64,000 nucleotides of DNA from Podarcis liolepis. Lineage: Eukaryota. Under the pieces are notes generated by a model. The model worked only from the letters and a program-made list of their open reading frames with translations. It was not told the origin of the DNA and did not search any database. The position numbers and the translations under genes are program-made. Below, one piece after another: positions 36,712 through 37,714 of this stretch (its first letter is position 1; the number at the start of each line of letters is the position of its first letter). The DNA lies in assembly GCA_965112155.1 (NCBI GenBank), contig OZ218106.1; one strand, given 5' to 3'.

Positions 36712-36833
36712 TAATTTATTATCTATTATCTATTATTTATTATTAATAATACCTCACCCATCTGGCTGGGTTTCCCTAGCCCTTCTGGGCGGCTCCCAAC
36801 AGAAGATTTAACAGAATAAAACATCAAACATTA
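36712..36833 (-). mobile_element. L2 LINE extreme 3' end (left part of the split element)
   Basis: The reverse complement matches 52930-53020 (…gccgcccaga…gaaacccagccagatggg…) and ends in a (TAA/AATA)n tail. Confidence 0.8.
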
Positions 36834-37569
36834 TCAAGGCTGGGAGTTGCACACAGCAGGAGCACTTCTATCCAACTCAGATCATCCCCCTTCATCGCCA
36901 GCCTTCCCAGGCAGAGGACCCTGGGGTGTTCTCCACCCAGGTGGACATTGGAGGGACGGCTTGCAACCAAAGGATGCTGCATGCAGGCACCTGCTGGGAG
37001 ATGCTGCCATGCTCAGGCTGGAGAGCGGGCGGGCATTTCCAGCCCGCAGCAAGAGGGGGGGGGGAGCAGTCAGGTCTAAGGAAGGGCCTCCCTTCCTGCT
37101 GGGAATGTGCAGAGTTGAGGCTGGCTGGTAGCACCTGCTTACATCTCCCACTGGCAGCAGCACAGCGGCCTCAGTCTGGAGGATTGGCTGCCCGCTGTCA
37201 AGTGATAACTCGGGTTCCTCGATGAGTCGCAGAGGCCTCTGCTACCACCAGGAAAAGAAGGGCTTGCGGCTCTGGAAGCTTTGCGTGTACGACTCACTGG
37301 CAGAGCGCTGGTGGGAGCAATCTGTCTCTACAATTACAGGGGGCATCTGGAGCAGGTGAAGGGGGCTCTTCCCATCTTTCAAGGCCTGGGTCAAATTCAG
37401 GATCTGGCCACGCATGACGGCAATCTGCTTGTGGAACTGGCCCCTGTCAAAGCCTGGATCTTTCTTGAAGAGTTCATAGAGGTCTTCTTCTAAATCCTTG
37501 ATAAAATTAGGGTCTGAAATCTTTGGCAGTATCAGATCCTTGATCTCCTGGGAAAAGGGCACCTTGGCC
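36834..37569 (-). pseudogene. PI4K2A: Processed, 5'-truncated copy of phosphatidylinositol 4-kinase type 2 alpha (last 108 codons plus about 410 nt of presumed 3' UTR)
   Basis: 37242-37568 translates to [108 protein letters not shown], the conserved PI4K2A C-terminus. It is contiguous, lacks an upstream acceptor or ATG, is flanked by L2 sequence, and has ETDCS where ETARS is conserved. Confidence 0.9.
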
Positions 37570-37714
37570 AAACATTAAAAACTTCCCTAAACAGGGCTGC
37601 CTTCAGATGTCTCCTAAAGGTCAGATACTGCAGCTGTTTGTCTCCTTGACATCTAATGGTAGGGTGTTCCACAAGGTGGGCAACACCACCAAGAAGGCCC
37701 TCTGCCTGGTTCAA
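37569..37714 (-). mobile_element. L2 LINE ORF2 C-terminus (right part of the split element)
   Basis: Minus translation ...[18 protein letters not shown], near-identical to the L2 at 52880-52935. Confidence 0.85.

Follow-up and report, generated by a model that had tools for sequence, protein, structure and literature searches.

At positions 36712..37714 of the window, i.e., the whole stretch of 64,000 nt that was analyzed, a fragment of PI4K2A lies within the 3' end of an L2-type repeat. The locus raises the question whether both parts arrived together, with the L2 reverse transcriptase switching from its own tail to PI4K2A mRNA and back, or whether a tail-less retrocopy was inserted later into an existing L2 element with formation of a target site duplication. 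Both scenarios had been put forward when the letters alone were inspected (in the following, the sequence-only reading).

The observed arrangement is real, and its coordinates and anatomy are as follows. In minus-strand order, the locus leads from unique flank through about 137 nt of the end of the repeat ORF2, one copy of TAATGTTTG, 735 nt of PI4K2A, another copy of TAATGTTTG and the 3' UTR with AT-rich tail of the repeat (about 113 nt) back into unique flank. All parts are read from the minus strand. The 5' half of the L2-type remnant (37578..37714) consists of the ORF2 C-terminus with a 5-nt insertion and contains T-runs directly before, and 13–15 nt before, the A of a T|A site, while its 3' half (36712..36824) is made up of 3' UTR and AT-rich tail; in organisms A, B and G (see below), both halves adjoin unique flank. 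The insert (36834–37568) comprises the last 108 codons of PI4K2A, spliced and with three missense changes (324 nt), together with the stop codon TAG (37242..37568), and 408 nt of 3' UTR (36834..37241) that form part of the parental last-exon contig and end within the UTR without poly(A). The first description, a co-directional fragment of about 735 nt with 108 codons, stop and about 410 nt of UTR, was therefore accurate. It had also stated that poly(A) and a poly(A) signal are missing at the 3' junction, and indeed none of the motifs AAAA, AATAAA, ATTAAA, AGTAAA and TATAAA occurs anywhere in the insert. A second copy of the insert is not present within the 64,000-nt window.

The insert is bordered by a perfect repeat of the 9-mer CAAACATTA (TAATGTTTG on the element strand), with the 3' copy at 36825..36833 and the 5' copy at 37569..37577 (both on the minus strand), and the match extends on neither side. 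The first two letters of the 3' copy and the last letter of the 5' copy are also found in the parent mRNA, i.e., the match to the parent extends to 36832 (in all three genomic runs) and to 37569. When these overlaps are allowed for, the duplication noted in the sequence-only reading is refined to a length of 6–9 bp, and the microhomology between parent and 9-mer that had been envisaged there amounts to 2 nt in the 3' repeat and 1 nt in the 5' repeat. For a 9-mer of that letter make-up at a fixed place, the probability of a chance repeat is about 8e-6; counting only the six letters that the mRNA does not explain, it is about 4e-4.

The identity of the insert is clear from its translation, which matched the structure of human PI4K2A (4PLA) with an E value of 2e-55 and gave a weaker match to PI4K2B; of the 120 proteins listed, one from Zootoca vivipara showed the highest identity (97%), so that the DNA probably comes from a lacertid lizard. 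For comparison with the parent gene, contigs and reads over 36300–38300 of the window were taken from four of the 24 runs listed, namely the genomic runs X1 (organism A), X2 (organism B) and X14 (organism G) and the RNA run X23 (organism G). In all three genomic runs the parent-gene contig aligned in three pieces, such that two introns are absent from the insert. Computed by hand from the alignment pieces, the offsets are 125 nt at 37404/5 and 186–189 nt at 37464/5, corresponding to the exon junctions MRGQ|ILNL and ELFK|KDPG, respectively, and PI4K2A isoforms in the databases skip or add residues at both of these points. Reads of the RNA run covered the insert sequence without gaps and on a single strand. 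The expectation that the parent carries introns within this coding stretch has thereby been borne out, and the RNA origin of the insert is demonstrated, two introns having been precisely lost. As in X2 and X14 the parental last exon continues past the 3' junction for more than 1000 nt, the insert ends inside the 3' UTR.

The PI4K2A copy is likely a dead pseudogene. It has no start codon, is out of frame with ORF2 behind an in-frame stop located just upstream, and has gathered missense changes. All three of the coding changes listed as common to the four runs (V>L, A>D, R>C) are missense, a pattern of decay without purifying selection, small as these numbers are, and the three residues concerned are invariant in the other 17 PI4K2A proteins printed. 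A fusion of ORF2 and PI4K2A was also considered and rejected, the reading frames being different. In X23 the parent letters alone were seen at six diagnostic sites and no reads fell on the unique flanks; organism G seems to lack the insert, so that this run is uninformative with regard to expression of the copy.

The host repeat is 5'-truncated, and the remnant of only about 270 nt retains just the end of ORF2, the reading frame of which terminates with ...ALFREVFNV at the 9-mer. We take the repeat to be of the L2 type because of this ORF2-end motif; an Atlas search with the ORF2 end returned no family name, the unnamed hits staying under 0.9, and Pfam searches with 5 and with 102 frames gave one weak RVT_1 hit elsewhere in the window and no host gene. 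The sequence-only reading had regarded the element as continuous across the insert when compared with a copy near 52900–53020, and this holds: the two halves match another copy in the window at 52802–52936 (115 of 135 aligned letters identical in the 5' half) and at 52932–53018 (71 of 85 in the 3' half, counted from 36749–36833), overlapping at the 9-mer. In other copies of the family the 9-mer is single. Judging from contigs of the sequencing runs, the copy number of the family is high, and hundreds of its contigs possess loose ends that go on past 37569 with the letters found just outside 36825.

Apart from these copies, the window harbors further mobile elements. An element that ends in ACCTT, presumably a Sauria SINE-like sequence, is located at 35720–36070 (minus strand) and is flanked by a 14-bp duplication (two mismatches) that starts with TA; TTT lies at -10 to -12 from the T, as in a textbook Tn-TA site. 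Decayed pieces of LINE ORF2 were found at 10345–11166 and 35088–35444 (both minus strand), with a weak RVT_1 match at 10345–10593; the latter piece, without Pfam hit, is assumed by us to resemble the C-terminus of RTE-type proteins. An open frame of 443 amino acids at 54583–55911 (minus strand) is situated within long imperfect inverted repeats (arms 54376–54464 and 56177–56265), gave no Pfam hit and presumably resembles a DNA-transposon transposase of the Chapaev3 type. Four elements of about 240 bp that are 87–95% alike and have inverted ends flanked by TA (28108–28342, 40218–40444, 43800–44051 and 58411–58646) are in our assumption Tc1/mariner-type, MITE-like elements. Lastly, a GC-rich element (53081–53612, about 530 bp) whose inverted ends measure 27 nt directly follows the tail of the L2 copy at 52570–53060.

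Repeat and insert differ in age. Over 738 letters, the insert shows 8 differences to the parent of X2 and X14 and 9 to that of X1 (about 1.1%), at least six of these differences being common to all four runs, whereas the L2 halves differ from the other copy in the window in 34 of 220 aligned letters (15.5%). Split equally, the latter value corresponds to about 8% per L2 copy, a figure that subfamily differences would inflate. As estimated from these sequence comparisons, the L2 element is several times older than the insert, and the insert is young. The unique flanks differ from the window in 8 of 1226 letters in organism A, 12 of 1182 in organism B and 50 of 1097 in organism G; for an insert predating the split from organism G about 17 changes would be expected, and the probability of observing eight or fewer is 0.015.

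The distribution among the three organisms points in the same direction. Contigs of both unique flanks enter the L2 element in A, B and G, so that the repeat is older than all three splits. The 3' junction is spanned in organism A by a contig of 113 nt that agrees with the window in every letter; 28–30 of its letters lie on the insert side, which is below the 31-letter rule. The parent contig of this organism breaks at 36832, exactly at this junction. Depth in X1 was 37–41 over the insert vs. 23–26 on the flanks. On the other hand, the parent contig of organism A is unbroken at the exon junctions, where a retrocopy should break it unless the assembler pruned the links; the 5' junction is not among the contig pieces listed for this organism. 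We also observed in X1 a depth of 37.5 over the parent contig including both introns (regions 36300–36770 and 37660–38300), which exceeds the value predicted for a simple collapse of parent and retrocopy. In organism B, a flank contig of 792 nt covers the whole 3' half of the L2 element up to 36833 and then continues with four letters for which the insert offers no alignment; no break occurs in the parent contig, and the depth of 8.8 over the insert compared with 9–12 on the flanks corresponds to a single copy. The same applies to organism G (parent contig unbroken, depth 13.8 over the insert vs. 11–12 on the flanks), where no trace of a filled junction was detected. None of the runs contained a contig that traverses the empty site completely and reaches 31 letters into either side; the empty site is deduced in B from the four unaligned letters and the unbroken parent and in G from absence, bearing in mind that contigs drop variants. 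Joint rows that skip the insert were set aside as evidence for an empty site, as they mostly stem from other L2 copies. Taken together, it is likely that organism A shares the insertion and that organisms B and G are without it.

We consider it likely that a spliced, tail-less piece of PI4K2A mRNA was inserted long after the L2 element by target-primed reverse transcription, carried out by the enzyme of another active LINE. The insertion site reads TTTTT|AATG, with the duplication beginning at T|A. A LINE endonuclease would have nicked the target at this T-run|A site, and the freed 3' end would have paired with two letters (UA) inside the PI4K2A 3' UTR. Copying would then have proceeded for 735 nt, halted in the coding region and been concluded by joining over one shared letter, while a staggered second nick would have led to the duplication of 6–9 bp. 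In such a process L2 would have served as target only. The overlaps of 2 nt and 1 nt at the junctions are as internal priming would be expected to give. The 3' overlap of 2 nt is at the lower limit of the published range of 2–18 nt and, with a chance of about 1 in 16, is weak when taken alone. With regard to truncation in a single-stranded part of the RNA, as looked for in tailless retropseudogenes, the last 4 nt of the insert RNA are unpaired after a stem, but the fold, computed without the RNA further downstream, is no better than that of shuffled sequences (z -1.19). The location of the break at the end of ORF2 needs no special cause, since of the 24 TA sites located within the remnant or at its edges only this one and one other have TTT upstream.

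Several alternatives have to be weighed against this reading. That the structure is an assembly artefact or stems from RNA contamination can be dismissed almost entirely: although no listed piece spans the whole stretch, the 3' junction recurs identically in the run of an independent organism, and six of its letters set the insert apart from the parent in each of the four runs. Poly(A) tails of retrocopies shrink with time, and an ordinary polyadenylated retrocopy originating from a proximal poly(A) site could have had its tail deleted later. We regard this as very improbable, because no poly(A) signal precedes the end of the insert, read ends do not pile up there in the RNA run of organism G, the depth of which is modest, the match to the parent passes directly into the repeat, divergence of the copy is only about 1% and the identical tail-less 3' junction is present in the 113-nt contig of organism A. 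Somewhat less remote, albeit still improbable, is the patching of a staggered double-strand break with a cDNA or RNA fragment by end joining and without LINE endonuclease, an event that we take to belong to the class of "templated sequence insertions", a term for which our literature search found nothing. Truncation at both ends, overlaps of 1–2 nt and the lack of a tail agree with such a repair event, and endonuclease-independent insertions show comparably short 3' overlaps in the accessible part of one survey (PMC2912911). The duplication is clean, however, no L2 letters were lost, and the T|A site is of the kind cut by LINE endonucleases, as far as the parts of the relevant study at hand describe it (PMC13295347).

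A double template switch, in which the L2 reverse transcriptase began with the L2 tail, moved over to PI4K2A mRNA and then returned, copying 9 nt a second time, all in a single event, is hardly tenable. It would account for the shared orientation of insert and L2 and for a break located at the ORF2 stop, and double template jumps have been described for a fungal LINE in the sections available of Gogvadze et al. (PMC2104539); equal orientation, however, is a 1-in-2 event. The parts are not of one age, the L2 copies being 15.5% apart compared with 1.1% between insert and parent, and the L2 element is present in G and B without a filled junction. The duplication flanks the insert and not the whole unit, which is also what a later insertion leaves; a search for an outer duplication yielded matches of 6–9 nt at best, none of them in flanking register, while in the published tripartite chimera the repeats enclose the complete unit according to the same sections (PMC2104539). 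The joint-origin proposal of the sequence-only reading hence fails on age, orthologous presence and place of the duplication, the first two of which had been named beforehand as observations that would speak against it. Its second proposal, later tail-less insertion into an existing L2 with target site duplication, is supported by the age gap and by the orthologous L2 elements.

Within the reading preferred here, i.e., later insertion by target-primed reverse transcription, the choice of enzyme is a matter of graded confidence: Bov-B (RTE) is slightly the likeliest candidate, albeit held at less than even confidence, L1 comes close behind it, and another LINE acting in trans (L2, CR1 and the like) is unlikely. 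The distinction between stringent and relaxed LINEs that had been drawn at the outset agrees with the literature in the portions consulted (PMC3747384). Bov-B, an RTE element held to need its own 3' tail, might tentatively be credited with copying host mRNAs in trans by internal priming, thus giving rise to L1-independent tail-less retrocopies in lacertids that are marked by TTT...T|A. The target signature of Bov-B and Sauria SINEs is T|A with TTT about ten letters upstream (Nakatsuka and Ohshima, PMC13295347; Nishiyama and Ohshima, PMC6007223, each in the parts available). A tally made by hand drew on Podarcis muralis Bov-B entries in one part of the supplement to PMC13295347. A duplication line is given there for 31 of them, of which 24 were evaluated; the other seven were dropped because the repeat did not adjoin the start of the element, was a microsatellite or mostly element, or because the sequence was incomplete. 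The duplication starts with T|A in 20 of these 24 sites, and TTT occurs within -16 to -10 in 11 of 24, compared with 994 of 7787 TA sites (12.8%) in the window; the tally covers a small part of the Bov-B list, and the range was picked after the PI4K2A insertion site was known. At the PI4K2A site TTT is found at -13 to -15 from the A, 2 nt further out than in nine of the 11 tallied sites (-11 to -13) and likewise far as in the remaining two (PMC13295347). The window's own SINE site, with TTT at -11 to -13, is unlike the PI4K2A site in this respect. One of the far-TTT Bov-B copies was inserted into the 3' end of a repeat seemingly of the same L2 family, at a near-identical site where AATG is preceded by five T, and another Bov-B copy is inserted about 10 nt downstream of the equivalent position, both in the tallied part of the supplement (PMC13295347). 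A search of the Figure S6 file of the same work with three short motifs brought up three Podarcis Bov-B copies located within, or immediately after, the 3' end of seemingly the same family (PMC13295347, parts available). On the basis of these entries, the AT-rich 3' end of the L2-type family may be a frequent Bov-B target.

A Bov-B-like tail was not found in the insert: when its last 80 nt were compared with the 3' end of the SINE in the window, 109 of 500 shuffled sequences scored as well. Mimicry of a LINE tail by the insert was rejected more generally, as 223 of 500 shuffles were as good in the comparison with the L2 3' end and the fold z value was -1.19.

That a relaxed lizard L1 and not Bov-B made the copy is a possibility we view with some doubt. 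Retrocopies of mRNAs are known to be produced by L1, and a relaxed L1 is held responsible for the tail-less copies of the green anole in the parts at hand of Noll et al. (PMC5322556). By hand count, the site TT|AA fits seven of the nine positions of the tail-less consensus TT/WAAAAWW given in these parts (PMC5322556). On the other hand, only two A follow the cut, such that four of the six positions of TT|AAAA are matched and two core A of TT/WAAAAWW are missing, and the end of the insert lacks an A-rich stretch. In addition, a duplication of at most 9 bp is uncommon for human L1 trans-retrocopies, which are not associated with short duplications in the accessible part of the work of Kojima (PMC2912911). 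Judged by its letters, the site appears to fit the Bov-B (RTE) signature in part and the L1 signature poorly. Bov-B is thus slightly favored by the site and L1 by precedent, and one site cannot decide between them.

Taken by itself, the locus is nothing unusual: it consists of an older repeat harboring a dead gene fragment, can at most serve as a presence/absence marker among close lizard species and does not demonstrate a route by which L2 could carry mRNA. The LINE that makes retrocopies in reptiles has so far been inferred, not measured, and the target signatures of Bov-B and L1 differ enough for a genome-wide tally of tail-less copies to tell them apart. If Bov-B were the maker, genomes invaded by this horizontally transferred LINE would at the same time receive an engine for copying genes.

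Among known systems, Anolis is represented by 404 catalogued retrocopies in the portions available of PMC5470649. Our literature search, which left most subscription journals outside, yielded no paper, among those listed, in which Bov-B or L2 generates retrocopies of mRNAs in squamates. Classical L1 processed pseudogenes share with the insert intron loss, 5' truncation with short overlap and target duplication; unlike them, the insert is without poly(A), ends in the 3' UTR and exhibits a short duplication and a weak match to TT|AAAA. Insertions of Bov-B and Sauria SINEs at Tn-TA sites resemble it in the T|A cut with TTT upstream, are active in Podarcis (PMC13295347; PMC6007223; parts available) and are listed in the 3' end of seemingly the same L2 family (PMC13295347). 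The insert, in contrast, is host mRNA without such a tail, its TTT is 2 nt further out and its duplication measures at most 9 bp, while the available Bov-B list starts at 10 (PMC13295347). Tripartite template-switch chimeras consist of three co-directional RNA-derived parts, as does the locus studied here, but in the sections available of Gogvadze et al. (2007, PMC2104539) the complete unit lies between the repeats and its parts are acquired jointly. At the PI4K2A locus, in contrast, it is the much younger middle part that is bordered by the repeat.

The closest counterpart is the class of tailless retropseudogenes, for which Noll et al. (2015, PMC5322556) cite Schmitz et al. (2004) and report the target TT/WAAAAWW and pairing over 2–18 nt; the green anole is the sole non-mammal named in the accessible text. 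Like the insert, members of this class are 3'-truncated RNA copies with target duplication and short complementarity between RNA end and target but no oligo(A), and forms of mRNA truncated at both the 5' and the 3' end are mentioned (PMC5322556, parts available). The published duplications span 8–35 nt (PMC5322556, same parts), and the insert has a perfect repeat of 9 nt, or 6–9 nt after overlaps. Differences concern the end of the RNA, which is not A-rich in our case, and the site, which fits the consensus only partly. Furthermore, the lizard screen described there used 5S rRNA and U2 (PMC5322556), whereas the insert was copied from the spliced mRNA of a protein-coding gene, and the lizard is lacertid-like. 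The insert is thus a tail-less retrocopy of a kind already reported in mammals and in the green anole.
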